Virus record (IMG/VR): IMGVR_UViG_3300031772_000048
Location: 1 to 52,738 of that record
Length of the DNA stretch: 52,738 bases
Source of the DNA: a virus
Taxonomy: Duplodnaviria; Caudoviricetes
Strand: one strand, 5' to 3'
Positions within the stretch are counted from its first letter, which is position 1. Every line of letters begins with the position of its first letter. A program made the translations under genes and the position numbers. This document shows, one piece after another, positions 14,372-51,522 of the stretch. The notes under the pieces were generated by a model. The model searched no databases, was not told the origin of the DNA, and saw nothing but the letters and a program-made list of their open reading frames with translations.

Positions 14372-14836
14372 ATGCCAAAATTTTCAGTTGATTACTCAGG
14401 TTTAGTCAGTTCTATTACTAAGAAGGCTTATCGCCTTTCTGATGTAAAAGACCAGCTAGAAACGGTAGCTTTTGACGTAGTTAGATTTAAAGATGCCGAT
14501 AAAGGTGCTGACCTGTGGCAAGTTCAAAGTGCAGATGATGGCGATTACATCGTAGCCCTGTATGATGATGAAGATGAAGTTGAGAAAACTGCTTCTAATC
14601 CTTGGGGAGTCTTTGTAACTAAGAACGGTCACGACTTACAAGTCTCTTATAAAGGAGACCCTCTTGTAAGATTGGCGGCCTCTAAACTTGGTATACCAAG
14701 CGCTGAATTGCATAAAGCTGAGCAATATCTGCCAGAAAAATTAGCCACTAACAAGAAACTCGTCAAGGCTTTGTTGAGTGAGCTAAGCGAAACTGCTAGA
14801 CATGAGGTATCCAAGCGATACCCGGAGCTGGTATAA
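14372..14836 (+). CDS. Hypothetical head-region protein
   Basis: SD GGGAG before ATG 14372; contains VEKTA. Confidence 0.75.
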   Translation: MPKFSVDYSGLVSSITKKAYRLSDVKDQLETVAFDVVRFKDADKGADLWQVQSADDGDYIVALYDDEDEVEKTASNPWGVFVTKNGHDLQVSYKGDPLVRLAASKLGIPSAELHKAEQYLPEKLATNKKLVKALLSELSETARHEVSKRYPELV

Positions 14837-14851
14837 CGGAATAGGTGTTCA

Positions 14852-16453
14852 ATGAGCTTGGATAAAATACATCAATTAGTAGGGTCTCTAGCAAAAGCGG
14901 TAGATGACAATCAAAAAATTGCCACCCCGATTCTAGCAGCCAAATTAGCGAGATATGCCGAAGCCTATCCACATGATCAGACTATTGGGATTATGTCCCG
15001 AGTTATTGATAAAATGGTTAGCAATAACACAACGTTTATTCGTAAGGCTGAACTTAAATCGCTCTACAATAAATTTTATAATCGTAACTCTAAGTTTGCA
15101 GATTTGTTTACCGCTGAAATGGGCGAAGAAGCACCAGAGTCAGAAGTGACAACTTACCAACGTGATGAGTCTGTTAAAACTGATCCTTATCATGTAGGAG
15201 ATCAAGTTTTGGCTAATGCTTTGGCAAGCGCTTTTGATAATCAATTGCCTCTAAAAATGTACTCTCAACCAGTTGCTGAGAGGGCTGCCAGATCTGTTGG
15301 TACCACTCTAGATGCTTGGAGCCTTAAACCTTCCAAGTTAACTGTTGCCGATGGTAATGATAAATTCATTATAATCAAGGCTGATTATGAAACTCCTAAA
15401 GGAGTTACCAGCTTCTACGTACCAGTAGAAGTAAAAAAGAATGATGTAGTTGACCCAGAAGTTTTTATGGGCAATACCGGTCCTGAAGATCTTAATCACA
15501 CTACTATTAAAGCCTATTTAAGACAACAAGCTGGCACTAAAACTAAGGTCGGTGCTACTGATATTTTGACCGCACTTACTGCCGCCGCCAGCGATAAACG
15601 TGAAGTAACTGCAGCTGAACTAGCTGTCACTCGTCTTAATGCAACTCGTCAGGGAAAATCTGAATTCTTCCAGAATCAGGTTGTCGGACTCAAAGTAGAA
15701 GCCGCCGCTAAAAAAGATGTTGAACTTCCTAAGTCAGACGAGTTTTTCTCTTTCGAAGAAAAATTCACTACTCCACAAGGTTTGGCCTCCTGGAGATTTG
15801 GTCCAGAAAAAGTTAGCAGCGCTAAGAACCACGTTTCTCGCGAGCTGCAGTCCATGGGATTTTCTAATCACCAGGTAGTAATTGCCGGTAATGATGATCA
15901 CACCATTCATTGTGGCGTATCTTTGGAAACTGGTAAACTAGCTTTTATGGTTCCAATTAGAGTAATTGATAACAAACTACAGAAGCCAACCGTTATGTTA
16001 TGTAATGGTTCTGTTACCAGTTTTGATAAAGCCGGAATTAATAGTCTTGTTTCTACGAATAAAACCGATGTTAAGATGGCTGCCGTTGCCTCTACTATGT
16101 CCGCCCTTAAGCCAAGTGAGATTGTTAGCAATCTGCGCCAGGCCCTTTCTGAAGATAATTATGCTAAGGCAGAAGATGCCCTTAATGTATTAGCCAATGC
16201 TGGAGATCAAAAAGCCTATGCCATTGCATTTGAACTTTATATGAACGGATTAGCCGGACAAAAAGTGGCCGAAACAAAATGTTCTAAAATGATAAAGAGC
16301 GCTAATAGCGAGTATCCAGTTTGTTCACACACGGGTTTGCCAGTTAACAAGGTGTACCAAGATAAGAGTGGATTCTGCCGACCATTATACCGTCAGGGTA
16401 TGGATGAAACCTATGAAGGAGCATCCTTCATTAATTCAAAGATTTTCGGGTAA
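14852..16453 (+). CDS. Hypothetical structural protein with an internal domain duplication
   Basis: 533 aa; two copies of a ...F.VP(V/I).V......P.V... domain. Confidence 0.75.
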   Translation: MSLDKIHQLVGSLAKAVDDNQKIATPILAAKLARYAEAYPHDQTIGIMSRVIDKMVSNNTTFIRKAELKSLYNKFYNRNSKFADLFTAEMGEEAPESEVTTYQRDESVKTDPYHVGDQVLANALASAFDNQLPLKMYSQPVAERAARSVGTTLDAWSLKPSKLTVADGNDKFIIIKADYETPKGVTSFYVPVEVKKNDVVDPEVFMGNTGPEDLNHTTIKAYLRQQAGTKTKVGATDILTALTAAASDKREVTAAELAVTRLNATRQGKSEFFQNQVVGLKVEAAAKKDVELPKSDEFFSFEEKFTTPQGLASWRFGPEKVSSAKNHVSRELQSMGFSNHQVVIAGNDDHTIHCGVSLETGKLAFMVPIRVIDNKLQKPTVMLCNGSVTSFDKAGINSLVSTNKTDVKMAAVASTMSALKPSEIVSNLRQALSEDNYAKAEDALNVLANAGDQKAYAIAFELYMNGLAGQKVAETKCSKMIKSANSEYPVCSHTGLPVNKVYQDKSGFCRPLYRQGMDETYEGASFINSKIFG

Positions 16454-16456
16454 TCC

Positions 16457-17479
16457 ATGAGAATAGTTAGATTGGCAGATTTATTTGAGTCAAAATATGA
16501 TCTCAAATCTGAAGCTGCCACCCCCAGAGAAATTTATAGTGATATCAAAAGGGAACTAACAGACGCCTATAATAATTACATTAATCAGAGAACTGCAGTA
16601 AAAGCTTACAACATAGTTCCATTATTGGGTAACGCAGGAGAAATTAATTGTAGGCGCATAATATCTTTAATGAAGGATGTTCATGAAAACATTAATGATA
16701 AAACACCATCTACCCTTCTGAGAGAAGTAAATAGTGTTTTAGCCGTTATTAGCGAGCTGCAAGAAGACAATCACAAAAAAGTTAGAAATAGCATTCGTCA
16801 ACATTGGATAGATGTTAATAGAAGAGTTCCTACCGACAATGAAATGGGGATGGCTTTATCCAAGTGGGAACAAGTAGTTAATAAAAAGCTAGCTAGTATT
16901 TTAAGTAAAGAAGCTGAAAAGCTAAAGAAAATATCCAGAAGTGATGAAACTATCATGGGCCGCCCCACCGAACCTATGGTTAGAGAGCCAACTAAACAAG
17001 AACAATTTATGTTTAGACAGACTCCATTAGCCTCACATCATCATGTAGATGATGGAGATATGTTTTTTAAGATTTGGGATAATCCAGAATTAAAACCCAA
17101 CCTAATTCGCCTTATCAATAAAAGTAGATATAGACACGCTCCCCTAGAAACAGATCATAAAATTATGAGAGAAGTTTTGTCTATACTAAAAGCACAACGA
17201 AGTAAAGTAACTAATGAAAATTTGTTTAATGTTCCCGAAGAAGAGGCTAAACGTCAATTAAGTGTTCTGCCACCAGAAGAAGTTTGGAATCGTCAAATGC
17301 AAGAGGCAAAAAGATTAAAACAAGAAGAGCCAGATCCAGAAGATCTTTTAAATAGAGATGATGCCCATAGACGTAGGCTTGAGCAAGAGAGGCTGAAGCA
17401 AATCGAGGAAGATCGCGAGAGACTTGTTAAAAGCGAAGGCAGCTCTCGACTTGAAAAAATATTAAAGAGGTACCAATGA
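16457..17479 (+). CDS. Hypothetical protein
   Basis: 340-aa ORF overlapping the next gene (ATGA). Confidence 0.7.
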   Translation: MRIVRLADLFESKYDLKSEAATPREIYSDIKRELTDAYNNYINQRTAVKAYNIVPLLGNAGEINCRRIISLMKDVHENINDKTPSTLLREVNSVLAVISELQEDNHKKVRNSIRQHWIDVNRRVPTDNEMGMALSKWEQVVNKKLASILSKEAEKLKKISRSDETIMGRPTEPMVREPTKQEQFMFRQTPLASHHHVDDGDMFFKIWDNPELKPNLIRLINKSRYRHAPLETDHKIMREVLSILKAQRSKVTNENLFNVPEEEAKRQLSVLPPEEVWNRQMQEAKRLKQEEPDPEDLLNRDDAHRRRLEQERLKQIEEDRERLVKSEGSSRLEKILKRYQ

Positions 17480-18189
17480 GAATTGCTGAACTATTAAATG
17501 CTATGGCCTCTTGGCTAGAGAGTCCAAACAACGAAGCCCTATTACTTGCTGAAGCTGATGAAAAATGCATGCGAGTAGTCGCAGAATCTTGTGTGCTTGC
17601 CGCTGAGCTACTCAAGAAGGCTGCCGATGAAGTGGATGTTCTTGAGTCTCCATCTGAGTCTATCATCACCTCAGAATCTATTGAAGAGACTGCCGCCCTC
17701 GCAAATGCACTTGATGCATCTGGAGATCCGCAACTTAAGAGAATGGCTTCCGTTTTAGACGAGCTATTGCTAACTGTTGCCGCTCCCCCAAACGCTTATG
17801 CTGAGCGCAAAGACTTACAAGATCAAAGAGCCGAAGAAATAAAAAAGAAATATGAAGGTCCTCGTAAGGATTTGCACAAGTATAATCATATTGAAAAATC
17901 TGAAAAAGCTATTGAAGAAAGTGGATTCACTAAAACTTACAAAATTTTAGAGGCCCCATTAAGCTCTCGTTATTGTCCTGATCACCCAGGTGCCCAAATT
18001 GCACGCGTGGGCGAGCACATGTGGCAATGTGATTTAGACAAAAAAACCTATAATTTTGAAACGGGTTTTGAGCTTGCTAACGGATCTAAAGTGCCTGGTG
18101 GAGATGTAGCGCAACAGACACAAGGTTTAGATACGCCATTCCATGCTATTTTTGACACGCGTGAAGGTAGATTAGGGTATAACAAATGA
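17476..18189 (+). CDS. Putative head-cargo protein with targeting-like helix and C-terminal Zn-ribbon-like motif
   Basis: ALANALDASG...ASVLDELL; RYCPDHPG...WQC. Confidence 0.7.
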   Translation: MRIAELLNAMASWLESPNNEALLLAEADEKCMRVVAESCVLAAELLKKAADEVDVLESPSESIITSESIEETAALANALDASGDPQLKRMASVLDELLLTVAAPPNAYAERKDLQDQRAEEIKKKYEGPRKDLHKYNHIEKSEKAIEESGFTKTYKILEAPLSSRYCPDHPGAQIARVGEHMWQCDLDKKTYNFETGFELANGSKVPGGDVAQQTQGLDTPFHAIFDTREGRLGYNK

Positions 18190-18437
18190 GTCAAAAAATA
18201 CTTAAAAAACTTGCTAGTATATTTTCTAATCAACAAAAAATTCTACAGAAGTTGGCGCTAGGTGACGATAAAGCAGAGTCTGTTTTTTTATCTGAGATGG
18301 AAAAAATTAAACAGACACCAGAATGGCAAAACGCCTCTCATGAGAAAAAGTTAGATTTTGAATCTGATTTAAGAGAAGCTGTAAGAGCTTTAGTATCAGA
18401 AGATGTGACAATGGGCGATCCTAATGACCTTGGATAA
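18186..18437 (+). CDS. Small hypothetical protein
   Basis: 83 aa, ATGA overlap, LQKLA motif. Confidence 0.6.
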   Translation: MSQKILKKLASIFSNQQKILQKLALGDDKAESVFLSEMEKIKQTPEWQNASHEKKLDFESDLREAVRALVSEDVTMGDPNDLG

Positions 18438-18579
18438 GCACATCGAGAATTTTCACAAAACAATTAGCGAGATACTGTCATCAATGGATTCTGAGGCGGC
18501 TTGCCAATTTGTGAAGTCATTCGAGGAAAAATTAGATGAACAAAAATGCACTCAAGAAAATTCTGGATCATCCAGATAA
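18424..18579 (+). CDS. Possible 51-aa protein not in the ORF track
   Basis: MTLDKHIENFHKTISEILSSMDSEAACQFVKSFEEKLDEQKCTQENSGSSR fills an otherwise empty gap and overlaps both neighbours. Confidence 0.4.
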   Translation: MTLDKHIENFHKTISEILSSMDSEAACQFVKSFEEKLDEQKCTQENSGSSR

Positions 18580-19291
18580 AGATGAAATCATTGCAAAATT
18601 AGTATTAGACTATCCTGCTAAGGATATTCATGATTGGCTTGCCGCTAAATATACAAATGTTAGTGAAGCTAAATTTGTAATTGCTGAAAAGTCAATTAAA
18701 GTATTCAAAGAAAATTATTTAGATGTCTATTCCATGATCCGTGAAGACATGATGAAGACTAAGCAAGCTCTAGCTACCAGTACAGAAGACCAATTAGAAT
18801 TGGCTGTAAAGAGCAACCCAACGTACAAGAGTAAAATGTTGGAATTAGCTGGTAAAGAAATAGATGTGCGTCAAATGGTTGCACATATGTGTATTGCTAT
18901 AGAAACACGTTTAGGTCAAGTTTTTGATGAAATTCAAGAAGACCCCCGTAATATCAATTCTAGGATAGACCGCGTTTTAATTGAATACGGCGAACTCCTC
19001 GGCGGTTTATTGGAAAAATATTATAAATTCACAGAAAACCCCGCCGACCTAGTAATCCAGCATAACGTAACTTTGCAGGTAGTGGATCAGCATATTTCGG
19101 TATTTCATGATGTAATCCGAGATGTTTTGTCACAATTGGATTTGGAAAGCTCCATGTTATTTATGGAACTTTTCAATGAAAAAATGTCTAAGCTAAAGCC
19201 ACCAGCTTCAGAACAGGCCATGAATACTGACACGAAGCTAGCTGAAGCAAAACTAATCAACGAAACCATTAACAAAAAGTTGAATAACTAA
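18536..19291 (+). CDS. HTH plus helical protein, candidate terminase small subunit
   Basis: KILDHPDKDEIIAKL...IHDWL N-terminal HTH-like segment followed by long helices; located in the packaging region. Confidence 0.4.
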   Translation: MNKNALKKILDHPDKDEIIAKLVLDYPAKDIHDWLAAKYTNVSEAKFVIAEKSIKVFKENYLDVYSMIREDMMKTKQALATSTEDQLELAVKSNPTYKSKMLELAGKEIDVRQMVAHMCIAIETRLGQVFDEIQEDPRNINSRIDRVLIEYGELLGGLLEKYYKFTENPADLVIQHNVTLQVVDQHISVFHDVIRDVLSQLDLESSMLFMELFNEKMSKLKPPASEQAMNTDTKLAEAKLINETINKKLNN

Positions 19292-19293
19292 TA

Positions 19294-21282
19294 ATGCCAG
19301 CTCCTAAGTCTTCTAAAAAACCCACTGTAGAAATGCCTTCCAAAAAACAATTGGATGAGCTTATTCGTCCATATTCGGATGAAGAATTATCTACTGTTGA
19401 TTTAGAAGATAAAATCAAAAATTTGATGGATTTTTTTGGTCAAAAAGCTGTTAATCATAAAAAAGAACTTCAAGAAGAATACTTATCTTCTCTGACTGAA
19501 AAAAAAGCATATCCTAATTATGACCAGTATCAAAACATGCCAGGCCAACATGATATGAAAAAATGGATGTATGCAGTTAAGGACGTTCAGTATAAACAAA
19601 AAGCTGGCTTTCCATATAAAGAGGCTATTAAACATGCCACCTCTGGTTGGCCTAAAATGGAAATCTATGACTTCTTAAACTGGCTCAGATTCCACGAAGA
19701 AGGATCTCATATGAAATACAAGTTTGCACAAGTCTGGTATGAAAATGGACAGCCAGGTTATTTTCTACATGTTAAGAAAGATCCTCCCGTAGAACCAGAA
19801 CCAAAATCTGATGGTGAAACCATTGATAACTCTCGTGAAGAAGATGAGCGTAATGAAGAGAAAAGAAATATTATTGAGAAGCAGCGCTCTAAAATTATTG
19901 GACGTTTAGATTCTGCTGAAAAACTTTTGCGCTCTCCAGATGGTCAACAGTTTGCCGGTGTTGAATTAGAAAACTTAATGGAAGCAATCTATAGTCTTAA
20001 AAAGAAAGTTCAGCTTGTTAACAAGTTGAGTATTTCTACTCGTTTATATGAAGATATGATTGTTCGTGAAGCTAATGTTCTTAGACGCCATGGTTTTGTT
20101 AAAGCTGCCGCTATGTTGTATTCAGTGGCGCAAACCCCAGGACAAGCCGGTCAAGGCGCTACTGGAACTACAGATGCTGGCGCCATGCCTCCCGCTACTC
20201 CTCCAGCCGATCCATCTGGCGCTGGAAATCCAGGGGCTCCAGGCGGTTTACCTGCCACAGCTCCGGGTGTACCTGATATCAATACTCCAGTAGGGCAAGA
20301 CCAAAATAAAAGTCAGCCTCCAGCTGTCGCAATTATGGAGGGAGGAAATGCACCAACTGGTACCGCACAATCTACTCCAGCAATTGTTCCACAAGAGCCG
20401 CCTCAACCTAAAGGAATTAAAGAGTTCATTCAAAATATGAACGAGGGAAACAAGACTGATAATACTGAAGCGGATGACGATTTAGAAGTAATTGATGAAT
20501 TAAATGTAGAAGACCCTGAAGAGATGTTGATGGTAACAGAAGCTCAAACACTTCCTATTGCACCACCTGGTCCCCCTGCAGCTGCTTTAGAAGATGTCCC
20601 AATGACAGACTCTCCGGCTCCCGAAAGAAATCCGCCAGCTTTCATTCCTACTGTCGAAGATAAGCCAAAAAAACCAAAAGGTGCAGTCGAAGACGAGCCA
20701 CTAGAAGTAACAGAAGATGATATCCCAACTCCTGGTGGCGATCAAGCGACCTCAACTCCATCAAATTTTGATGCTCAAGTAGATAACGCATTTAAGAATG
20801 CTACTATAGCTGATGTTGTAGCGGAGCTAGAAGACATTTCTAAAGATTATAAAACTAGAAAACAACCAAGAAGACTTAATAAAGTTGACATGATGTTGGA
20901 TAGTTTGGGCCTCGCCTCTATGTTTCCATCACTTGCTGAAGCTCAAAACAAAGCATTAGAATCTAATAACTATATTTCTTCTCGTGTTGATGATATTTTG
21001 TCTAAGTTACGAGGCGCTATGGCTAGTCAAGAAAAAATAGAGGCGCCGTCTCCTGAAAGGCCCGAAGTTACTGGTATTAAAAACAAGCTTCAAGATGATC
21101 AAGAAAAAGAACTCAAGCGTAAGCAAATGAGAAAAGAACAAGAAGCTTCTGAACTAGAAGGAGGCGCAGGCAAAGAAACCCCAGAAGTAGAAATGGGAGA
21201 GTTGGGTGCTCCAGCCGCCCCAGCACCTCCAGCTCCTCCAGCCGCCCCAGCTAGAGCGCCTGTTCCAAAACCATTGGGCTAA
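19294..21282 (+). CDS. Large Pro/acidic-rich putative internal head protein
   Basis: 662 aa with EKKA, YKFA and LEV motifs, a targeting-like helix and Pro-Ala linkers. Confidence 0.7.
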   Translation: MPAPKSSKKPTVEMPSKKQLDELIRPYSDEELSTVDLEDKIKNLMDFFGQKAVNHKKELQEEYLSSLTEKKAYPNYDQYQNMPGQHDMKKWMYAVKDVQYKQKAGFPYKEAIKHATSGWPKMEIYDFLNWLRFHEEGSHMKYKFAQVWYENGQPGYFLHVKKDPPVEPEPKSDGETIDNSREEDERNEEKRNIIEKQRSKIIGRLDSAEKLLRSPDGQQFAGVELENLMEAIYSLKKKVQLVNKLSISTRLYEDMIVREANVLRRHGFVKAAAMLYSVAQTPGQAGQGATGTTDAGAMPPATPPADPSGAGNPGAPGGLPATAPGVPDINTPVGQDQNKSQPPAVAIMEGGNAPTGTAQSTPAIVPQEPPQPKGIKEFIQNMNEGNKTDNTEADDDLEVIDELNVEDPEEMLMVTEAQTLPIAPPGPPAAALEDVPMTDSPAPERNPPAFIPTVEDKPKKPKGAVEDEPLEVTEDDIPTPGGDQATSTPSNFDAQVDNAFKNATIADVVAELEDISKDYKTRKQPRRLNKVDMMLDSLGLASMFPSLAEAQNKALESNNYISSRVDDILSKLRGAMASQEKIEAPSPERPEVTGIKNKLQDDQEKELKRKQMRKEQEASELEGGAGKETPEVEMGELGAPAAPAPPAPPAAPARAPVPKPLG

Positions 21283-21294
21283 CAAAGAAGATGA

Positions 21295-22068
21295 ATGAAA
21301 CTCCGACAACTGCTTCTAGAAATGAAGAAAGTACAAGAAGAAATAGGCGCCTCGCAGCCCTATATTTGTGGAGGCACGCCTAGAGACAAGTACATGGGCA
21401 AATTAGAAAATATAGCTGATTTAGATATTACTACCGGTGATAAAACAGTAGATTATCTTTCGCAAGAATTCTATTTGGAATTTCGCAAGAAATATAATGT
21501 CACCAGAAAAACTATGGAAGATGGACACAGCTCTATCTTTGTTGGTACTTTAAAAGTAGATTTTTCTTCTAATTTTATGGTTAACAATATTGATCGCATT
21601 CTGCAACAAATGGGCATGGCAAATCCTAATAACATGCAAAGAGAAATGTTCAGTAGAGATTTTACCTGCAACTCTCTATTACTAACTGTAGACCTTAAAA
21701 AGATATTAGATCCAACCAAACATGGATTTCAAGATATTAAAGATCGCAAAATTAAAACTTGTCTATCTCCTGAAATTACATTAACATCAAATAGAAATAG
21801 AGTTGTTAGGGCCATTTATTTAGCTTGCAAATTAGATTTTGATGTAGACCATGCAATTATTGATTATGTAAGTAAGAATCCTCAAACTGTTAAAATTTCA
21901 ACAGAAAAATCTATGACAGAAAAGCTAAATGACGCTTTCACTAGAGATGCCGATAGAGCGGCCAGCCTTGTCACTAGGATGAATTTATGGAATTATATTC
22001 CGGTTACTGAAAAAGTGTATCCATATTATATGCGACATACTAAGGGGAAAGCAAATGTCATTAAATAA
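21295..22068 (+). CDS. CCA-adding / poly(A) polymerase family nucleotidyltransferase
   Basis: GGTPRD, DLDITT, RDFTCNSL, DPTKHGFQDI; motif D reads SNRNR instead of EDxxR. Confidence 0.85.
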   Translation: MKLRQLLLEMKKVQEEIGASQPYICGGTPRDKYMGKLENIADLDITTGDKTVDYLSQEFYLEFRKKYNVTRKTMEDGHSSIFVGTLKVDFSSNFMVNNIDRILQQMGMANPNNMQREMFSRDFTCNSLLLTVDLKKILDPTKHGFQDIKDRKIKTCLSPEITLTSNRNRVVRAIYLACKLDFDVDHAIIDYVSKNPQTVKISTEKSMTEKLNDAFTRDADRAASLVTRMNLWNYIPVTEKVYPYYMRHTKGKANVIK

Positions 22069-23158: not shown

Positions 23159-23166
23159 AACTAACT

Positions 23167-23200
23167 ATTATCATTGCATACAACCGCATATAATCATATA
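23167..23200 (+). promoter_or_regulatory. Tandem late-promoter-like boxes with 10-bp period
   Basis: ATTA-N6-CATA-N6-CATA-N6-TATA. Confidence 0.55.
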
Positions 23201-23227
23201 AAGAAAGCACTCCCAGAGGTACCTTAA

Positions 23228-24169: not shown

Positions 24170-24171
24170 TA

Positions 24172-39020: not shown

Positions 39021-39036
39021 CACTTAGTAGGTGAAC

Positions 39037-41107: not shown

Positions 41108-41121
41108 AAATTCCGTTTTGC

Positions 41122-41538: not shown

Positions 41539-41580
41539 TATCGCAGTATATTATAGACAATCTAATCTATCGAGGCTAAT

Positions 41581-42804: not shown

Positions 42805-42815
42805 GGAATAATTAG

Positions 42816-43979: not shown

Positions 43980-43982
43980 AAC

Positions 43983-45476
43983 ATGACCTTTATTTATGAA
44001 GATGAAAAGCTTATTGAGCGTCTCTTACAAGCAGGCGAAGAATTTGAAAAGAAATTTTCGAAGAAAGGCCAAGCTGCGCCCGTCCCAGCTACACCTCCAA
44101 CCGCACCACAACAACCTGGTAAACTACCGGCCACATTGCAAGATTTTGATGCTGACGAAGCAAACGAACAAAAAAAAATTAATCTTAGAGCACTTCTTTT
44201 TAATCTAAGAGATCAGTTGCCCAATGCTCCAGGCAGTGGTTCTGGAAAGAGTGGATATAGCGCTAACACTTCTTTAAATAGTCATAATATGGATAGTATG
44301 GGCGATTTTGTAGAGTGGCTTGATGTCACTCATAGAGTAGACATAGCTACTAAAGTAAACGCTGATCGCTCTAATCGTCCTAAACCAGATAATGCTTGGT
44401 GGTTCTGTAAAATTGAGCCTGGTACTGAAATTGTAACACCGCTTGCTGTACCAGATCGATCACCAGTGGCCTATTGGATTAATCCCACTACACTAAAACA
44501 ATATTTAGTTTCTTTACAGAGCGATAAAGATCTAAAAACTAATGTTGTATTTCAGGTTCAATTGCTCAAATTAATTCAAGATGCTAACAGTCAATTACGA
44601 CTAGGCGTCAGCGAAGAATATAAAGAGCCAGAAGTTGTTCTGCCAGATGATATAGAATTAGATAAAGTCGCAAAAGAATTAGATCCAAAGCAGTGGGGAC
44701 AGGCCGGAACTATTCCGCTTCTAGTTAGGGATGTAAAATCGGTTGCAGCTTTTGAAGCTTGGACAAAGGCAAACGGTATTGGATTTAAGGGCAAAGATGG
44801 CAAGGTAGTTTCTTCAGATGACCTGCAGAATTTTGATTTGTGTGGCGTTGTTAATATTCTAAATCAAAGAGCACAGGGTCTAGCCCAGCGTCAGCGTGCG
44901 AATTCCAAAGCTTACATTTCTTATATGGCAAAGATTATTACTGAAACAAAATGTAGTACTACGCAGCCAGGTCAGCAGCCTGGTCAACAACCAGGACAAT
45001 CCGGTAAAATTAGTCCGCAAGCTATTCAACAATTGGCGACTTTGAAGCCATTCAATAGACAGTATATTGATTTTGGACAGATTACTACGTTCTTAGATAA
45101 ATATAATGAACTTGCTAATAAGCCAGCCATTGATAATTTAGTCAATCAGGTTAAAGCCTCTATTGAGGCAGCTAATCAGAATTCAAATTCTCCAGGCGCC
45201 CCAATACAAATGAGTAACATAACTCCTGGACAAATGAAATTACAGTCTAAATTACCATTAGTACTTATGAATGCTTTATATACTATCATATCGGTAAGTG
45301 GTAGAGTGTATCAAGAATTTTATAATGATTGTAGAAATGTTTTGGAAGACCGCGCCCCTAATCTAGTTGCTTCTGTAGCGGAACAGATTACTGCAGGTGG
45401 TCCACAACAATCAAACATTGGAAATATCTTACGTGTTAGAGAAGGTTTAATGAGCGAAGCTAGGAGCGGTCAGTGA
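43983..45476 (+). CDS. Putative internal virion / ejection protein
   Basis: FSKKG-Q; QPGQ repeats. Confidence 0.65.
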   Translation: MTFIYEDEKLIERLLQAGEEFEKKFSKKGQAAPVPATPPTAPQQPGKLPATLQDFDADEANEQKKINLRALLFNLRDQLPNAPGSGSGKSGYSANTSLNSHNMDSMGDFVEWLDVTHRVDIATKVNADRSNRPKPDNAWWFCKIEPGTEIVTPLAVPDRSPVAYWINPTTLKQYLVSLQSDKDLKTNVVFQVQLLKLIQDANSQLRLGVSEEYKEPEVVLPDDIELDKVAKELDPKQWGQAGTIPLLVRDVKSVAAFEAWTKANGIGFKGKDGKVVSSDDLQNFDLCGVVNILNQRAQGLAQRQRANSKAYISYMAKIITETKCSTTQPGQQPGQQPGQSGKISPQAIQQLATLKPFNRQYIDFGQITTFLDKYNELANKPAIDNLVNQVKASIEAANQNSNSPGAPIQMSNITPGQMKLQSKLPLVLMNALYTIISVSGRVYQEFYNDCRNVLEDRAPNLVASVAEQITAGGPQQSNIGNILRVREGLMSEARSGQ

Positions 45477-46597
45477 TTAGTAATAGTGAAGTCAGTTTTT
45501 GTGTTGACACACTTCTTGTAGAAACAATTTTGGCAGAGCCAAAATTATACAAGACGGCTGGCTTCGTGTCTGATTTGCTTGAGAAAGTTAAAGAGTATTT
45601 CAGTGCTCAAATGACTCCTGGTGAACCAGTCTCTAGTGTTTTAAGAATAATAGCACCCGGTGCTTTGTGGTTATTTTTATCAAGTATCGGGCTTGGTAAA
45701 TGGGGATTTCTACTTGGCCTTTTGATGGATGTATTTCATATAGATGCCCCTGGTCTATTAAAATCTTTGTTTGAAAAAGTCAAAGGTATGATTAGCGGCG
45801 GCCAGAAAGTTTCTTCAGAGCAAATTGATTCTGCTGCAGAATCTGCTGCACAAGAATTTGCTACACCAGGAACACAACAAGAAGCTCAACAAGGATATGA
45901 AGCTTTACAACAGAAGAAGCAACAACAGCCGCAACAAGAAGAGGGCGCTAAAGCAAATGATCACGTAACATATAGTTCATTGGAACTAATGCATGATGCT
46001 AAAATGATTAGACTGGCCCTTATCAATTATGAAAACCAAAAAATGAGGTTAACTAAGGAAGCTGATATTTCAGATTTTTTTAAGGGATATGGGAGAAGCA
46101 AATCTAGGGGAACTACTTTGCTATCTAAAATTTTTGGTTGGGTAATTAAGATTGCTTTATATTCTGCCGGACTAATGGTAATAGGAGATGTAATTAATGC
46201 GGTTCTTGGTCGTCCAAGTGCATTAACACATACTTATCAAGCCGGCAAAGAATCACCTTCAGAAGCTCCGACAGCTCCCCCTCCAACCACGGTATCTACA
46301 CAAACTAAATTTCCGAAAAAGGGAGATGCCCCATTGCCAGCATCTTGGCCGCTGATTAATAATCCTTCTAATATTGAAAATATGCTTATACAATTTACTA
46401 AAGATGTATATTCGGGATTAGATGGTAAAGAAGATATTATTCGCAATACACCATCTTTTGATGCAGTTAAAGACAATATCAACTGGTTTAATGTTCATAA
46501 TCCTGGTAGTGCAGTCATTTTCCTTCCAAAAACCTTCACTTCCAAAAAACAATTGGTAGATTACTATATTGATGATGTTGCCGAGAGTGTCAAATGA
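45473..46597 (+). CDS. Putative membrane-inserting virion protein
   Basis: LYKTA and LTKEA, each followed by hydrophobic segments; SD AGGAG before GTG. Confidence 0.65.
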   Translation: MISNSEVSFCVDTLLVETILAEPKLYKTAGFVSDLLEKVKEYFSAQMTPGEPVSSVLRIIAPGALWLFLSSIGLGKWGFLLGLLMDVFHIDAPGLLKSLFEKVKGMISGGQKVSSEQIDSAAESAAQEFATPGTQQEAQQGYEALQQKKQQQPQQEEGAKANDHVTYSSLELMHDAKMIRLALINYENQKMRLTKEADISDFFKGYGRSKSRGTTLLSKIFGWVIKIALYSAGLMVIGDVINAVLGRPSALTHTYQAGKESPSEAPTAPPPTTVSTQTKFPKKGDAPLPASWPLINNPSNIENMLIQFTKDVYSGLDGKEDIIRNTPSFDAVKDNINWFNVHNPGSAVIFLPKTFTSKKQLVDYYIDDVAESVK

Positions 46598-46652
46598 ATT
46601 CGGGCATATCAATGCATATCGTTAACAATTTCCTTTTAGGTGAGAAATCAAT

Positions 46653-47957
46653 ATGAGACGCTCTGAAATTTTTGAAAGCTTTGTTAAAATTGCCCAAGAG
46701 AAAGGATTACTTTCCGAAGCTGAGCACGCTGAGCACACGGAAAAGAGTTTTTCGGAAACAAATCCGAGACACGATTCCTTGACTATTGAGCAAATCAGTA
46801 AGCTATATAATACTAAGTCTGAACGCCCAAAGGATATGGATTACGAGCGCAATATTATCGAAGATGCTCATCCAGATTCAGTTGTCGTTTCTCCATCTTA
46901 TGATAAATTAAATGGTCTCGTAGAAAATGAAAACGAAGGCCAAAATATTAGAATTCGTATGGTAATGAAGCAACCTGATGGCCATCTAGTTCAACGCAAG
47001 TACGCTGAGAAGAATCTTATTCTATCTTTAGTTCGAGTTGCCAATGAATTAGATAATCGTGATAACGATGAGCTTCGCAAGTTAGCAGACGTTTGCTTAT
47101 TGCAGGTTTCTAAAAAAAAAATTGAAAAAACTGCTTTCCCGTGGGTGATTGCTGCAATTGTTGCCGCTGTAGGTGTTCTTTGGCTTCAGCAACATTTACC
47201 AAAACATGCTGAAGGGTGGGCTTTAGATTATCAAAATGCTCAAAAAGAAGTCAATGATTTGTTAACCGCAAATACTAATTTTGGTGTTGGATATGAATAT
47301 TCTCCAGAGTTTTTACAAACAGTTGCACAATTATCAAGCATTCTTGCCGAACTAGATGGTGTAGTTAAAAAAGTAATACCTATTTTAGATGAAGTTCAAA
47401 AGCCAAGAACTGGCCCAGCCCTTTCACAAGAGTTAGCTAAAATTTCACAACAACCCGCAACACAAAGTGCCAGCGCAGCTGTTAGCGAATTAAGATCAGT
47501 AATGGTAAAAAATCTACCCTTCATTAGAAAAGTCCTATCTGATTTTAGTAGCTCTACTTATAAGCAAAGAGTTATTGTTCAAAAAGGAGCTTTAACGTCT
47601 GTAGTTGATAAGGTGGAATTTTTACATGGTGGATGGGGTTTGATATCTGATGATTTTGATGATGTTGCTCAGGCTATTCAAGCTTTAAGAAAAGATTTAA
47701 TCAATATTATAAAAGATTTAAAAGGTGCCCAAAACATTCAACAACAGTTGCAGGCAGATTTACAGGCAGGGCAAACCGAAACTGATTTGATGTTTGAAGA
47801 TAAACCAGCCGCAACTCCTGCATCACCTCCTGCATCACCAACTCCTGCATCATCAGCCGCTCCTGCTCCCCAATCAGAAAAAGGCACTTGGCAATCTTTA
47901 GAAGATAGTGCTAAAAGCATATTAGGCGGTGGTTTAAGTGGTCTTTTTGGAAACTGA
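46653..47957 (+). CDS. Putative membrane-inserting virion protein
   Basis: IEKTA-FPWVIAAIVAAVGVLWL transmembrane-like segment. Confidence 0.7.
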   Translation: MRRSEIFESFVKIAQEKGLLSEAEHAEHTEKSFSETNPRHDSLTIEQISKLYNTKSERPKDMDYERNIIEDAHPDSVVVSPSYDKLNGLVENENEGQNIRIRMVMKQPDGHLVQRKYAEKNLILSLVRVANELDNRDNDELRKLADVCLLQVSKKKIEKTAFPWVIAAIVAAVGVLWLQQHLPKHAEGWALDYQNAQKEVNDLLTANTNFGVGYEYSPEFLQTVAQLSSILAELDGVVKKVIPILDEVQKPRTGPALSQELAKISQQPATQSASAAVSELRSVMVKNLPFIRKVLSDFSSSTYKQRVIVQKGALTSVVDKVEFLHGGWGLISDDFDDVAQAIQALRKDLINIIKDLKGAQNIQQQLQADLQAGQTETDLMFEDKPAATPASPPASPTPASSAAPAPQSEKGTWQSLEDSAKSILGGGLSGLFGN

Positions 47958-48106
47958 TCTAGGCATAGCCCTGTATCTTAGTGAATAAAGTGATTAATTT
48001 TTGTTGAAAACATATCAATAAAGAAGTATGCTTTACAGATTTTGTAAGTTTAGGTGTAAGTTATCATGCCTGTAAAAGGCATTTCAAGATTAAATAGGAA
48101 AAAACA

Positions 48107-48835
48107 ATGTCTCTCAAACTATTACAACCAGGCACTCAGCCTCTAGGTCAATTTGATTGTGCTGACGCAGAACTAACTTCCTTTAAAGGCGGAGAAGTTT
48201 GCACCTTTAAATACGTTACTACTTCTGGTCAACCAGGCGTCACTCAGGCTGGTACTGATCAAGCCGCATATGATGTATTCGATGGATACATTAACGCATC
48301 TGGTACGTTCAAGCGCCCAGCTGTTACCAAGACTTTTGCTGCAACCAGCATGACCGCTCGTCCATTGATGCTATCAGATGATGGTATTACTGGATACGGC
48401 ACACTCTTCGGCTCTGTCGTTGGTGGCGCTGTTGGTCAATCTGTCACTAGTGCAGGCCTTGGCCCACACACTGCAGTCGGTTCCGGCAAGATGACTTGCT
48501 GGGACAAGCCAGGTCTCTATGCCGTCTCCTTAGACGCAGTAGATACCACTCCTTCCACCGGTTTATTGCCAGGTAATACTTCCTTAGTTGGTGGTGATGC
48601 TCTAGGCTTTACAACCGCTGGTTTACTAACTCCAACTGCTACAGGCGCCCCAGTAACTAATGGTGGTCTTGCAGTCGTAGTCGCTCGCTTAGTTGAGTTC
48701 AACACTAACCAGTCTTTGGTAACCACTCCAAACTATTTGGTCGCTGCCCTCAACAGCCCATCTGGAAACGTATCCTCGGTTCAACCAAGAGCCTTCCAGT
48801 TCGCAACTATCTACTTTGCTCCACAAAGCAACTAA
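48107..48835 (+). CDS. Head decoration / cement protein
   Basis: Gly/Thr-rich beta protein directly upstream of the MCP; biased codon usage. Confidence 0.65.
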   Translation: MSLKLLQPGTQPLGQFDCADAELTSFKGGEVCTFKYVTTSGQPGVTQAGTDQAAYDVFDGYINASGTFKRPAVTKTFAATSMTARPLMLSDDGITGYGTLFGSVVGGAVGQSVTSAGLGPHTAVGSGKMTCWDKPGLYAVSLDAVDTTPSTGLLPGNTSLVGGDALGFTTAGLLTPTATGAPVTNGGLAVVVARLVEFNTNQSLVTTPNYLVAALNSPSGNVSSVQPRAFQFATIYFAPQSN

Positions 48836-48860
48836 TTAAGTTGAACAAACTTCTCTGGCC

Positions 48861-48914
48861 GGGAGGCTGGGGGAGACGCAAGTCTCGAAGTCCTTACTGG
48901 ACTCCTCCTATCCT
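48861..48914 (+). promoter_or_regulatory. Structured RNA element in the MCP leader
   Basis: GAGAC-GCAA-GTCTC and AGTCC-TTACT-GGACT hairpins enclosed by G-rich / CCTCCTATCC arms. Confidence 0.55.
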
Positions 48915-48967
48915 TTATACGTAAGTTTTTAAGCTGGTTAAACTGGCAAATTTTTCTAGGAGTCATA

Positions 48968-49981
48968 ATGAATATGTTCAGCAGCAAAGGCGAAGTAAAC
49001 GCCTCATCTTTTAAAGATGCACTACAGGCATTGGTTAAGTATGCCGCCATTCTCGAAGAGAATGTCCCATCCAATCAAGGTCTAGCTGGTCAAGCAGCAT
49101 TGAGTGATGAAAAGCGTGATGAATTGATTACTCGCGCTATCATGACTCAAGACGGAAAGATTGCACTTGCACAAGCAATGGCAAACCCAATCCGTAGAAA
49201 CTTGGATTACCATGGTATCGCACGTCGTGCCTTGGTTGTTGATCCACTTCCACAAGGTGCAATTCCAACTTACGATAGAGATATCGATGTTGCCGCAGTT
49301 GTTATCTCCTCCAACGGTACTGGCCCAGAGTCCAGAGTCTTTGGTGACAGAGTAGTTGTTCCAGAGTTCGAAATCTACGCGAACCCAACAGTTCGTATCG
49401 CAGAAGTCAAGCGTCGTAGATTTAATGTCATTGACAGAGCTGTTCAAAAGGCACGTCAGGAAATCATGGCTCAAGAAGATGCAAACATCTTTGCCGCCTT
49501 GGATGCCGCTGCCTCAGTTGAGAACACTCTCACTGATATCGCCGATGCAGGTTTGCTCAAGAGAGACCTCGTCGAAATCAAGCAACAAATTGACCGTTGG
49601 GACTTAGTAACCACTAAGTACTTCATGAACATCAACGAGTTCACTGACATCCTCAAGTGGGGATCTGGTGGTGGACAAGGCGTAGGCGGCGGTGATTTCG
49701 ATCCCGTAACCATGCGTGAAGTTCTACAGACCGGCTTGTATGCCCACATCTGGGGTACTGACATTATGGTCAGCAAGATCGTTCCACCAGGAACCATCTA
49801 CGGTGTAGCCGATCCTGAGTTCGTTGGTGTAATGCCAATCCGTCAGGACATCGAAGTTCTACCAGCAGACGAACCAAAGCAGCTTAAGTTGGGCTGGGTT
49901 GTTTCCGAAATCATCGGAATCGCCATTGTCAACCCACGTGGTTGTGCAGCAGGTCGTAAGTCAGTCGTCATCGGCGCCTAA
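48968..49981 (+). CDS. Major capsid protein (HK97 fold)
   Basis: 337 aa; RVVVPEFEIYANP, I.AQEDANIF..L, G.IWGTDI.VS..VP.GT.Y; SD AGGAG; strong codon bias; followed by a terminator. Confidence 0.85.
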   Translation: MNMFSSKGEVNASSFKDALQALVKYAAILEENVPSNQGLAGQAALSDEKRDELITRAIMTQDGKIALAQAMANPIRRNLDYHGIARRALVVDPLPQGAIPTYDRDIDVAAVVISSNGTGPESRVFGDRVVVPEFEIYANPTVRIAEVKRRRFNVIDRAVQKARQEIMAQEDANIFAALDAAASVENTLTDIADAGLLKRDLVEIKQQIDRWDLVTTKYFMNINEFTDILKWGSGGGQGVGGGDFDPVTMREVLQTGLYAHIWGTDIMVSKIVPPGTIYGVADPEFVGVMPIRQDIEVLPADEPKQLKLGWVVSEIIGIAIVNPRGCAAGRKSVVIGA

Positions 49982-50003
49982 TAAGCCTGATTGAGTAAGT
50001 TCC

Positions 50004-50043
50004 GAAATGGCCACTAGAGAAATCTAGTGGCCATTTCATTTTC
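50004..50043 (+). terminator. Intrinsic terminator after the MCP
   Basis: 15-bp stem GAAATGGCCACTAGA-GAAA-TCTAGTGGCCATTTC followed by ATTTT. Confidence 0.9.
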
Positions 50044-50055
50044 TGGCATACTAAT

Positions 50056-50604
50056 ATGGATACTAAAAAACTTCGTAAAGCTTACATGCAGATTATGCCT
50101 CATTTGAACAAGGCGTTAAAACACGTGCAATCCAAATTATCGGATGTGCCGCCATCAGATTTTGTGTTAGAAACAAATATGAAGCCTTATTCTAGCGTCA
50201 AACGCAAAATGTTGAATAATCATATTCACGATCCTATACAGCTACCCGATTTAGTAAGGGGTAGGCTCTTTTTTTCTAAAGACTATAATCCAAAAGAAGT
50301 TGTAAGTTTACTTAAAAAGATATTCGGGAAGAATATTACTAAAGCAAACAAAAAAGACACCAATGATTGTGGATTAAAATATCCAGGTGTTACTGATGTT
50401 AATTTAGATTGTGATGGTATCCAATTTGAATTACAGCTAATGCCTTTAGAATTCCAGCCACACCAAGAATTATCTCATCAAATTCATGATAAACTGCGTA
50501 GTGATAATGGGAAATTAACCGATAAGCAAAAAGAATTTTTGCGACATATGCACAATAAATTCTTCAAAGTTTTGGATGCTAAATCTAAGGCTTCCGACGA
50601 TTAA
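50056..50604 (+). CDS. RelA/SpoT-like nucleotidyltransferase (small alarmone synthetase-like), divergent
   Basis: K..SS..RK, DLVRGR, FELQL and ELSH motifs in RelA/SpoT order. Confidence 0.7.
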   Translation: MDTKKLRKAYMQIMPHLNKALKHVQSKLSDVPPSDFVLETNMKPYSSVKRKMLNNHIHDPIQLPDLVRGRLFFSKDYNPKEVVSLLKKIFGKNITKANKKDTNDCGLKYPGVTDVNLDCDGIQFELQLMPLEFQPHQELSHQIHDKLRSDNGKLTDKQKEFLRHMHNKFFKVLDAKSKASDD

Positions 50605-50814
50605 TGTCAATGTGCGCTCATCCTCAATTTCCTACCACCCATACTAATTGTATAAATTATCGAAAGGACGAGTCCTCCCCAGGGTCAGAATTTTTAGAGG
50701 GAGCTGTAAGATTCTTATAAGATGAAATGCCTTAAACTGAAAATAACGTGTCAAAATCGTAACCCGTGTAATAAAAAGGTATAATACTAGAAATCTATTC
50801 AAAGACAGAGGCAA

Positions 50815-51522
50815 ATGAGTTTGTTAGAAGTTACCGAGCTTTACAATTTGATTTCCAGGGGCTCTCAAAATGTGGGCGCCAGGAAACAGTCTATGCTACT
50901 TCGAAAAGAAGCTTTAGCGTCTGTGGAGTCAGGTCAAGGTTTCAATAAAATTGCTTTTGATACTCGTCTTATGGATCAAGAAACAGAATATAATCCACGC
51001 AGAGGTTTGCAAAACTACAATCGTAGTGAGGCTTTTCTTAGTGAGGCGCTTTCAAATAAAGTAAAAAGTTTTGCAAAACTTCGTAAAGTATTAAATCAAC
51101 TTAAAGATGTTTATGGTAAAGAGCACGAATGGCAAGACAGTAATGCTCGCGTTCTTTTAACTACGATAGATAGCGGTTTACGAACTATTGCACAAGATGA
51201 AAATTTTTCTGTTAATCAACCAGGTACCGGTAGCTTTGATTATATTGAAGAGCTATTGAATGTTAGATATCGTTTGACTGTTGATAACCTTACTAGTATG
51301 GGTGACGCCCAACTTAAGAATATCATTTTATCTAAAGATGAAGAATTAATTCGTAAAGATATGAAGCAGGCATTAGAAATTACTAAACAAGATGTAGCTA
51401 AACAAGGATACGATACGTTAATGGAAAAATTGTTTGATGGTTGTCGAGCTAGTGCGGAGAATCCAGATATTGAAAGAACTATTACTATTACCATCAGAGA
51501 CAGATTCAATAAAGAAGGCTAA
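50815..51522 (+). CDS. Hypothetical protein
   Basis: 235 aa; LRKEA and FNKIA motifs; SD GAGG. Confidence 0.7.
   Translation: MSLLEVTELYNLISRGSQNVGARKQSMLLRKEALASVESGQGFNKIAFDTRLMDQETEYNPRRGLQNYNRSEAFLSEALSNKVKSFAKLRKVLNQLKDVYGKEHEWQDSNARVLLTTIDSGLRTIAQDENFSVNQPGTGSFDYIEELLNVRYRLTVDNLTSMGDAQLKNIILSKDEELIRKDMKQALEITKQDVAKQGYDTLMEKLFDGCRASAENPDIERTITITIRDRFNKEG

Follow-up and report, generated by a model that had tools for sequence, protein, structure and literature searches.

A recurrent hydrophobic-x-Lys-x-Ala motif in head-region proteins of a phage-G-like virus, a putative cleavage signal of its prohead protease

We analyzed a 52,738-nt stretch of viral DNA (Caudoviricetes; IMG/VR record IMGVR_UViG_3300031772_000048), hereafter the window, and found that a short amino acid motif, hydrophobic-x-Lys-x-Ala, recurs beyond chance in the proteins encoded in its head region. 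The sequence patterns described below make it likely, with a probability of roughly 0.68, that the phage's own prohead protease recognizes this motif and cleaves at it, with P1 occupied by Ala. Throughout the text, the strict motif is [LIVMF]-x-K-x-A, a gene denoted gNNNNN is the window gene starting at that coordinate, residues are numbered as amino acids (aa) of the respective protein, and an arrow marks the putative cleavage point.

Recurrence, position and conservation of the motif

The strict motif occurs 56 times in the 35 proteins that start between 14360 and 50815 (11,876 aa), compared with 20.1 ± 4.4 occurrences in whole-protein shuffles, none of 300 of which reached 56. On the replication side (16 proteins, 0.4–14.3 kb, 4,467 aa), 8 copies were found versus about 7.7–8.0 expected. 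The first-pass annotation of this DNA, made from the sequence alone, had proposed testing for an enrichment over the replication proteins, and the composition-matched controls show one. Among 400 patterns of the form hydrophobic-x-a-x-b, with expectations calculated from each protein's own composition, the strict motif ranked first (z 7.9), and no Glu-based pattern was among the twelve most enriched. Local composition does not account for the excess because shuffling in blocks of 10, 15 or 25 residues, which retains it, yielded about 21 copies, with a maximum of 37 in 500 shuffles. Several control patterns in the same proteins were close to expectation, including the reversed A-x-K-x-hydrophobic (21 versus 20.4), the shifted register hydrophobic-x-x-K-A (19 versus 20.4) and hydrophobic-x-E-x-A (15 versus 17.1). 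The last position had been described as Ala, Gly or Ser. In the window, neither Gly (17 versus 15.3) nor Ser (13 versus 18.2) was enriched at this position, and both are retained only as substitutes in orthologues (see below); the looser [LIVMF]-x-K-x-[AGS] had 86 copies versus 53.2 expected.

Without the protease-containing polyprotein, 43 copies remain versus 17.8 expected, and the counts by sub-region are 15 versus 6.0 (14.3–24.9 kb), 7 versus 4.8 (24.9–34.5 kb), 13 versus 3.2 (the polyprotein and the next gene) and 21 versus 6.3 (38.3 kb to the end). The signal resides at the protein level because the codons at the motif positions vary (Lys AAA 30 times and AAG 25 times; Ala by four codons), and a DNA-level motif was rejected for the same reason. 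The next most enriched patterns in the head-region proteins (14360–52269) were hydrophobic-x-S-x-L (42 versus 18.2) and hydrophobic-x-N-x-L (28 versus 12.5); hydrophobic-x-[SN]-x-L was rejected as a signal, being conserved at only 12 of 69 sites and N-terminal at 11%, and its excess is probably a general helix feature.

The copies are concentrated near the N-termini. Within the first 50 residues, the motif is present in 15 of 36 head-region proteins, versus 2.9 ± 1.6 in shuffles (maximum 9 in 1000), and in 2 of the 16 replication proteins, versus 1.2 expected. The density of strict sites is 12.8 per 1000 aa in the first 50 residues and 3.2 per 1000 aa elsewhere. The earlier suggestion that the motif ends short N-terminal leaders thus holds. 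Apart from the polyprotein, the carriers are mostly single proteins with a leader of 5 to 45 residues, some of which have one or two additional internal sites. The view of the carriers as a cohort of polyproteins therefore stands for one clear case (34547–38224) and not for most of the others. The estimate of about 20 carriers is reasonable: in 13 proteins from the portal gene onward the sites are conserved although their flanks drift, two more are g22055 and g23228, and the 14–21 kb block contains about six further, less well tested carriers. The pentapeptides on which the estimate was based exist; TEKKA, SRKTA, FSKKG, MKKFG and VEKTA were checked singly, and the others appear in our site listing. 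According to this listing, most of the well-supported N-terminal sites have further hydrophobic residues at P8/P9, with amphipathic-helix spacing, and the residue at P2 is variable (V, I, K, E, Q, T, Y, F). A signal-peptidase reading of the leaders was rejected on inspection, given that they are charged and amphipathic and lack a hydrophobic core.

To assess conservation, open reading frames (ORFs) were called in related loci, and orthologues were identified by best BLAST hit and aligned. Where orthologues have diverged, many conserved sites retain the hydrophobic, Lys and Ala/Gly columns, while the x positions and the flanks drift. In families with a mean identity of at most 0.7, the full pattern is present in at least 75% of the orthologues at 23 of 47 sites; for seven control patterns, the same measure gave 1/16, 2/10, 1/22, 2/14, 2/11, 1/10 and 1/11. 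The test of conservation in homologues that had been suggested was thus favorable. Where the last residue of a conserved site is replaced, the order is A > G > S, and Lys now and then changes to Arg. Seven strict sites appear chance-like, being unconserved in orthologues (g30572 positions 161 and 253; g39530 position 70; g43983 position 226; g46653 positions 141, 182 and 309), which fits an excess of about 36 copies over about 20 expected. A relaxed pattern, [LIVMFYWTAC]-x-[KR]-x-[AGS], combined with the conservation filter alone was discarded as a way of finding sites: 71 of 207 sites passed, and because many of these are in well-conserved folds (for example, LYRGS of a phosphatase), the filter does not discriminate without a contrast to the flanks.

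The contrast between motif positions and surroundings is clearest in individual carriers (Table 1). At site 13 of the poorly conserved g42816 (41 orthologues), the hydrophobic residue, Lys and Ala are conserved at 0.98, 0.88 and 0.85, compared with 0.00 and 0.17 for the x positions, 0.25 for the flank and a background of 0.20 for Lys and 0.25 for Ala in this protein. In g41581, the full pattern is present in 0.93 and 1.00 of 15 orthologues at its two sites, with a mean protein identity of 0.34; at site 32, the three motif positions are all at 1.00 and the x positions at 0.40 and 0.00. Similarly, the hydrophobic residue, Lys and Ala of FNKIA in g50815 (site 43) are at 1.00 each in 48 orthologues, with x positions at 0.17 and 0.04, and the last position of the preceding LRKEA alternates between Ala and Gly (23 and 20 of 49 alignment rows). 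The three sites of g29323 retain the full pattern in 0.83–0.91 of 53 orthologues, with flank identities of 0.33–0.47 and a background of 0.34 for Lys and 0.27 for Ala. In g32119, the values for LVKIA and MVKCA are 0.61 and 0.98 of 57 orthologues. The mean protein identity of g45473 and g46653, whose sites are also well retained, is 0.40–0.42. In g39530, a strict motif is found at most 12 alignment columns from the site in 0.85 of 27 orthologues.

Some carriers favor Gly at the last position. This is the case for g39031 (G 7 and A 2 of 11 alignment rows) and for g43983, in which 22 of 26 orthologues have Lys, the last position is G in 19 and A in 4, and the next residue is Gln in 24. In the portal protein (44 orthologues), Lys is present in 42, the last position is A in 33, G in 7 and S in 2, and Gln follows in 42; the part alignable with the phage G portal begins at aa 108, after the MKKFG site. 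The motif of the major capsid protein, LVKYA, is retained as the full pattern in 0.98 of 59 orthologues, and homology to phage G gp27 starts only at aa 43. For the 14–24 kb block, conservation is less informative because the orthologues are fewer (9–21) and mostly closer. Here, FVKEA↓Q at aa 214 of g23228 matches hydrophobic-x-[KR]-x-[AGS] in 0.82 of 17 orthologues, with Lys and Ala in 17 of 17, and ITKKA↓Y at aa 19 of g14360 is kept in 13 of 13.

The polyprotein and its predicted protease domain

The motif is densest in the 1225-residue polyprotein, which contains 13 strict copies, most of them outside residues 1–266. For 11 of these 13 sites, 62% or more of 64 orthologues have hydrophobic-x-K-x-A. 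Across 138 diverse homologous polyproteins, with inherited sites counted in each, the strict motif occurs 1314 times versus 420 expected, with a median of 9 copies, and 127 of the 138 proteins exceed twice their own expectation. The putative release site, LEKVA↓S, is located at the C-terminal end of the protease domain. In 64 orthologues, its hydrophobic residue is conserved at 1.00, Lys at 0.92 and Ala at 0.84 (the rest being mostly Ser), compared with 0.28 and 0.08 for the x positions and 0.33 for the flank. The phage G protein gp19 also has LEKVA followed by Ser, at aa 246–250 in its C-terminal tail, at the end of the region matched to the window protease. A release site at a fixed distance was sought in the 138 polyproteins; the anchor pattern missed 50 of them, and the first strict motif followed 28–42 residues on in 22 of the remaining 88, so that either the spacing of the release site varies in distant relatives or the anchor was a poor one. 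The C-terminal region of the polyprotein is probably scaffold-like.

Within the polyprotein, two tandem modules of about 90 residues each start with YFQGGGGVNEPT and YFQGAGGVNEPT, directly after INKQA and RNREA. A related module is encoded by a separate gene, g22055, in which it follows a 7-residue leader (MSLNKKG↓YFQGGGGVNEPT); aa 3–90 of this protein are 36% identical to aa 409–489 of the polyprotein (blastp, E 7e-10). All nine orthologues of g22055 have the Lys and the Tyr that follows the motif; the last position is A in six of them and G in three. In the 138 homologous polyproteins, 121 of 137 YFQG-like modules start directly after [KR]-x-[AGS]. Among the carriers, paralogy was detected only for the YFQGG module and in two weak pairs.

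One gene in the replication part also resembles the polyprotein. The product of g4947 (4947–6062) starts with MQLHNLLRPLQKEA↓N and has the motif at aa 10–14 (LQKEA), and its aa 172–352 are similar to aa 986–1178 of the polyprotein (25% identity, E 2e-7). A search for relatives of g4947 in which the conservation of this N-terminal LQKEA could be followed found none. The gene may be a head or scaffold paralogue located outside the region covered by the first-pass annotation.

The N-terminal domain of the polyprotein (aa 1–266) is predicted to have the fold of herpesvirus assemblin and T4 gp21, so that the prohead protease assumed by the first-pass annotation can be assigned to it (Z scores of 10.4–11.3). 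An AlphaFold2 model based on a 77-row alignment reached a pLDDT (predicted local distance difference test) of 88.5; 26 close orthologues had given 45. In VIA-align comparisons, the best matches of the model were the varicella-zoster virus (VZV) protease (1vzv; Z 11.3, root-mean-square deviation (rmsd) 2.4 Å, 115 aligned residues), the pseudorabies virus (PRV) protease (4v08; Z 10.6) and T4 gp21 (5jbl_A; Z 10.4, rmsd 2.8 Å, 132 aligned residues), and the next unrelated family, MlaD/MCE, had Z ≤7.2. Foldseek alone was weak on this model (best E 4.5e-3, probability 0.98), and a comparison of the domain with the sequences of solved structures gave chance matches only (E ≥0.15). The PHROGs entry matching aa 105–213 is phrog_18299, "head maturation protease" (E 9.4e-12). 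All 77 sequences share His132 and Ser183, the candidate catalytic pair; they are 51 residues apart, a spacing similar to that of the HK97 and T4 proteases. The gene is located between the portal and major capsid protein genes, as in the lineage of assemblin-fold prohead proteases.

In tblastn searches, residues 34–260 of the polyprotein matched phage G gp19 with 34–35% identity as well as actinophage proteins, and the matches include annotated prohead or capsid maturation proteases of Rhodococcus phage E3 and Gordonia phage Stormageddon. When 1.84 billion representative proteins were searched with a profile, 208 homologues were retrieved at E ≤1e-30, and nearly all of the best 150 of these are fusions of 1050–1670 residues. 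About 25 of the same 150 align to the profile in two parts separated by an insert of about 150–380 residues near profile position 105, and some homologous proteases bear Hint/intein-type Pfam domains, which suggests that inteins reside inside the protease gene of some relatives (P0054, P0057; P0074, P0076, P0085 and others). The window protease also contains a stretch, aa 193–209 (35123–35173), with the spacing of a small zinc-binding insert: Cys193, Cys196 and Cys207 are invariant and His209 is nearly so. Phage G gp19 has a similar C-x2-C ... C-x-H stretch, and we know of no counterpart of this cluster in T4 gp21 or assemblin.

Table 1. Head genes, motif carriers and putative sites in the window (arrow, putative cleavage point).
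Feature	Coordinates	Strand	Sites and remarks
Upstream block: genes 14360, 14852, 16457, 17476, 18186, 18536, 19294, 22055, 23228	14360–24169	+	15 strict sites versus 6.0 expected
LNKKG↓YFQGGGG	22061–22075	+	ends 7-residue leader of separate YFQGG-module gene 22055–23158
Large terminase	25397–27280		
Portal	27364–29241		
MKKFG↓Q, portal	27610–27624	+	aa 83–87, upstream of conserved portal core
g29323, 415-aa protein	29323–30570	+	MDKFA↓Q (1–5), LIKEA↓G (153–157), ISKYA↓K (388–392)
g32119, 247-aa protein	32119–32862	+	LVKIA↓K (22–26), MVKCA↓A (152–156)
Polyprotein, 1225 aa, with protease match	34547–38224	+	protease domain, linker, two ~90-aa YFQGG modules, Pro/Ala-rich linker, C-terminal region
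Predicted protease domain, aa 1–266	34547–35344	+	assemblin / T4 gp21 fold (model)
LEKVA↓S, putative release site	35330–35344	+	aa 262–266, C-terminal end of protease domain
INKQA↓YFQGGGG	35771–35785	+	directly before first YFQGG module
RNREA↓YFQGAG	36062–36076	+	directly before second YFQGG module
g39031, small protein with leader	39031–39522	+	MNMFKKA↓N (3–7), FNKLA↓K (32–36)
g39530, small protein with leader	39530–40363	+	LRKQA↓S (18–22)
g41581, 407-aa protein	41581–42804	+	LEKVA↓K (17–21), LQKRA↓S (32–36), both in one leader
g42816, poorly conserved, with leader	42816–43979	+	IYKIA↓N (13–17)
g43983, poorly conserved, with leader	43983–45476	+	FSKKG↓Q (25–29)
g45473	45473–46597	+	LYKTA↓G (25–29); full pattern 0.86 of 50 orthologues
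g46653	46653–47957	+	FVKIA↓Q (10–14), IEKTA↓F (157–161); full pattern 0.94, 0.81 of 53 orthologues
Major capsid protein	48968–49981		phrog_2522 major head protein, E 1.8e-81
LVKYA↓A, major capsid protein	49031–49045	+	aa 22–26 (ALQALVKYA↓AILEEN); would end 26-residue leader
g50815, 235-aa protein	50815–51522	+	LRKEA↓L (29–33), FNKIA↓F (43–47)

Proposed processing and alternative readings

Considering position, conservation and the predicted protease together, we infer that the motif is most likely cleaved. The site would read hydrophobic (P5)-x-Lys (P3)-x-Ala (P1), with occasional Gly or Ser at P1 and Arg at P3, and the enzyme would be the phage's own prohead serine protease, that is, the N-terminal domain of the polyprotein. 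Inside the assembled prohead, the protease would first release itself at LEKVA↓S (aa 266/267) and would then cut the remaining polyprotein at about ten more sites. Subsequently, it would trim leaders of 5 to 45 residues off the major capsid protein, the portal and at least 12 other proteins that presumably reside in the head, and would cut a few of them internally. The leaders may also aid the entry of their carriers into the prohead, as T4 capsid-targeting sequences do. The cut is tentatively placed after Ala because homology starts right after the small residue in the three YFQGG copies and because leaders can be as short as five residues. A predicted complex of the protease domain with aa 1–45 of the g46653 protein scored 0.01 (mark 0.32) and counts neither way.

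The proteases of T4, phiKZ, 201phi2-1 and SPN3US are reported to act on many head proteins, cutting C-terminally to Glu in L/I-x-E or A/S/G-x-E, mostly removing N-terminal propeptides of variable length, and to cut themselves as well (PMC5694885, PMC10052503, PMC12991175). As with T4 gp21 and phiKZ gp175 / SPN3US gp245, one short consensus is present, here at the sequence level, in the capsid protein, the portal, the protease and many head proteins, and the predicted protease fold is shared with T4 gp21 (Z 10.4). In contrast to the T4/phiKZ group, the window motif has a conserved Lys at P3, Ala at P1 and no Glu; the system would work alike but is not a member by specificity. Its protease also differs in being fused to about 960 further polyprotein residues, and sequence similarity to the T4 and phiKZ proteases is undetectable. 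The herpesvirus release consensus is Ala↓Ser, with a hydrophobic residue at P3 and neither Lys at P3 nor a hydrophobic P5 required. The window protein resembles herpesvirus assemblin, its best structural match, in the arrangement of an N-terminal protease on a long C-terminal region and in the putative Ala↓Ser release site; it differs in the Lys at P3 and the hydrophobic P5, and in extent, since herpesviruses have two to few sites in one protein family and the window phage has about 25 sites in 15–20 proteins. Self-release of the herpesvirus protease-scaffold fusion pUL26/assemblin is reported to leave a C-terminal Ala, and PrV assemblin to end at Ala225 in vivo (PMC4498786). The first-pass annotation had presented the specificity as different from that of T4 and phiKZ with their Glu at P1, which is right, although the herpesvirus enzyme provides a precedent.

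The Pfam S78 model (HK97 gp4-type proteases) gave no match to the window protein. In Staphylococcus phage 80alpha, the host protease Prp processes the capsid and scaffold leaders, and leaders of the Prp type mimic the extension of ribosomal protein L27 and end in Phe-Ala↓Ser. The window motif differs from these in its variable P2 and conserved Lys at P3. In the literature searched, which did not extend to the 2020 phage G proteomics or its supplementary tables that may bear on novelty, neither a Lys-x-Ala head motif nor a phage G cleavage motif is described. A 2020 paper on phage G in the Journal of Molecular Biology reportedly names a candidate prohead protease that processes gp27.

Phage G, in which ORFs were called over 490 of 497.5 kb, allows the motif to be followed through a large genome. 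Its head-module bin (0–35 kb; terminase, portal, gp19 and capsid protein) contains 31 strict motifs versus 12.9 expected, compared with 161 versus 145 beyond 45 kb. Phage G resembles the window phage in having the same motif, including LEKVA↓S in gp19, and in the confinement of the enrichment to the head module; it differs in that its protease, gp19, is a standalone protein of 300 aa. The phage G portal, gp14, contains MAKQA↓A. Short leaders ending in the motif are found in gp13, gp20, gp38, gp56 and gp65 as well as in genes scattered genome-wide (ORF starts, for example, at 28218, 255160, 255911, 258975, 382868, 435497 and 482110). Of the phage G ORFs that start with M-[KS]-R, 8 of 22 pass directly into the motif and share near-identical leaders of the form MKRLxKxA or MSRLxKxA. 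The scattered ORFs of this type are candidates for leader-tagged virion cargo. Over the first 12 residues of the phage G ORFs, no amino acid exceeds its own local frequency after hydrophobic-x-K-x as strongly as Ala does.

Beyond phage G, Alice gp90 and E3 gp77 contain the homologous protease domain (tblastn E 1e-6 to 3e-11) with long C-terminal fusions (1511 and 895 aa), as in the window protein. The capsid proteins of Mycobacterium phage Alice and Rhodococcus phage E3 have leaders of like form (LGRFA↓K), with Arg in place of the Lys at P3, and those of Tunturi_5 (LLKSA↓A) and PaBG (VLKDG↓S) are also similar. Virion proteins of PaBG, including the capsid protein, are reported to be processed, in an account that gives no sites (PMC7412058).

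Several observations weigh against cleavage of the motif by the phage protease. Two conserved motif copies are located in the protease's own N-terminal helix (aa 32–36 and 39–43), and directly after the second there is an invariant Pro, an unusual residue to follow a scissile bond. Pfam assigned no protease family to the polyprotein at E ≤0.01. In phage G, the annotated capsid protein has no such leader, and one non-head 35-kb bin is mildly enriched (24 versus 13.6). In Tunturi_5 (13 kb examined), the standalone protease and the next gene contain no [LIVMF]-x-[KR]-x-[AG]. Furthermore, the orthologues come from closely related IMG/VR contigs (capsid proteins 90–99% identical), so that sequence counts are not counts of independent events, and the totals for the 138 polyproteins likewise include inherited conserved sites repeatedly. 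Finally, in well-conserved proteins, motif sites are indistinguishable from structural residues.

Some of these observations would also fit a different role, that of a signal for docking or capsid targeting. The motif would then form the end of an amphipathic helix with the scaffold, the interior of the shell or the protease as its binding partner, and cutting would take place elsewhere or never. The hydrophobic residues at P8/P9 of most well-supported N-terminal sites are consistent with such a helix, as are the two copies in the protease's own helix, including the one before the invariant Pro. T4 leaders combine targeting and cleavage, which also speaks for a targeting function. However, leaders of 5–7 residues (MDKFA, MNMFKKA, MSLNKKG) are too short to form a self-docking helix, and copies lie exactly at module or domain boundaries within one polyprotein. 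In addition, a small residue at P1 (Ala > Gly > Ser) is characteristic of a protease S1 pocket and agrees with what is reported for assemblin (PMC4498786). We therefore regard targeting without cleavage at the motif as unlikely.

Alternatively, the motif could be cut by another enzyme, either a Prp-like host protease, for which 80alpha provides the precedent, or a second phage protease such as the ClpP/ClpX of phage G, both of which are encoded and are reported to have been detected in particles (bioRxiv 10.1101/2024.12.16.628780). We give this reading little credence: the motif is densest in the very protein that bears the protease (13 copies; median 9 in 138 homologues), and it is located at the C-terminal end of the protease domain itself and in the tail of phage G gp19. 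Moreover, similar capsid leaders occur in relatives that infect Mycobacterium, Rhodococcus, Tunturiibacter and Pseudomonas, and because these hosts are very different, a phage-borne enzyme fits better than a host enzyme. Least probable of all is that the motif has no specific function and arises incidentally in helical structural proteins rich in Lys, Ala and Leu, its number raised by paralogy in the head module; many carriers are predicted or likely to be helical, and the second-ranked hydrophobic-x-S-x-L is a generic feature of such proteins, but block shuffles give about 21 copies instead of 56, the counts match expectation when the register is reversed or shifted, conservation singles out the three motif positions, and paralogy among the carriers is limited.

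The window, its relatives and the meaning of the motif

The window derives from a phage-G-like huge phage, of which it covers 52.7 kb, as indicated by hundreds of relatives in IMG/VR whose capsid proteins are 90–99% identical to that of the window and many of which are on contigs of 200–480 kb. Phage G of Bacillus/Lysinibacillus is the closest cultured relative found (capsid protein 53% identical over residues 43–327), and a search of GenBank phages for near-identical DNA gave no match for the region from 25.4 to 50 kb. Two close protease homologues (P0014 and P0021) are from metagenome bins with the labels Cytophagaceae and Flammeovirgaceae, which hints weakly at Bacteroidota, and not Bacillota as for phage G, as the hosts of the clade, although a binning artefact is possible.

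All but one of the 52 long ORFs are on the + strand. A DnaE-type DNA polymerase III alpha subunit with PHP, NTPase, finger and HhH domains is encoded in the first 14 kb, together with other replication-type genes. When 30 window proteins from 14.3 kb onward were scanned against PHROGs, a clear head function was assigned to the terminase, portal, protease and capsid protein only, and two other proteins had non-head matches. One of these is a tRNA nucleotidyltransferase-like protein (21295–22068; phrog_2244, E 1e-12), which is encoded among the motif-bearing genes upstream of the terminase and has no motif copy itself; no tRNA genes were found in the window. The other (30572–31699) has an N-terminal lytic transglycosylase (SLT) domain, like baseplate-hub or ejection proteins, and its two strict motif copies are unconserved. 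A tyrosine/dual-specificity phosphatase family protein (32859–33629; PF13350, E 1.2e-8; PF03162, E 3.6e-7) is encoded in the head module between the portal and protease genes, and its N-terminal LYRGS looks like part of the fold and not like a motif site. The only long gene on the − strand (24819–25370), directly before the terminase, encodes a Lys/Cys-rich protein of 183 aa with CxxC pairs, for which Pfam gave no match. The G+C content is 0.469 at 48001–50000 (capsid gene) and 0.453 at 36001–38000 (second half of the polyprotein), compared with 0.36–0.42 elsewhere in the window.

In the known one-motif head processing of the T4/phiKZ group, the residue at the cut is always Glu; the code described here would be a second and different one. 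If the proposed processing is correct, virion-internal and ejected proteins would be predictable from sequence in the clade of the largest cultured phage and many uncultivated megaphages, in whose genomes nearly all genes of the head module lack an assigned function. It would also tie a phage preference for Ala at P1 to herpesvirus assemblin and thus bear on the evolution of specificity in an ancient protease fold. Activation loops of CBASS (antiphage signaling systems based on cyclic oligonucleotides) are reported to be tuned to the T4 motif (PMC12991175), and the present motif would provide a target list for host sensors of phage protease activity. Phage G is cultivable, and liquid chromatography-tandem mass spectrometry (LC-MS/MS) data on its particles exist, so that the claim is directly testable there. 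More tentatively, and at somewhat less than even odds, the protease lineage of phage G and the megaphages, perhaps including PaBG-like jumbo phages and cluster-C actinophages, may have a hydrophobic-x-Lys/Arg-x-Ala↓ specificity that acts as an address label. In that case, a short leader ended by the motif in a genome of 200–500 kb would mark cargo that resides in the prohead and is probably ejected, even when it is encoded far from the head module, and megaphage virion cargo would become predictable from sequence alone.

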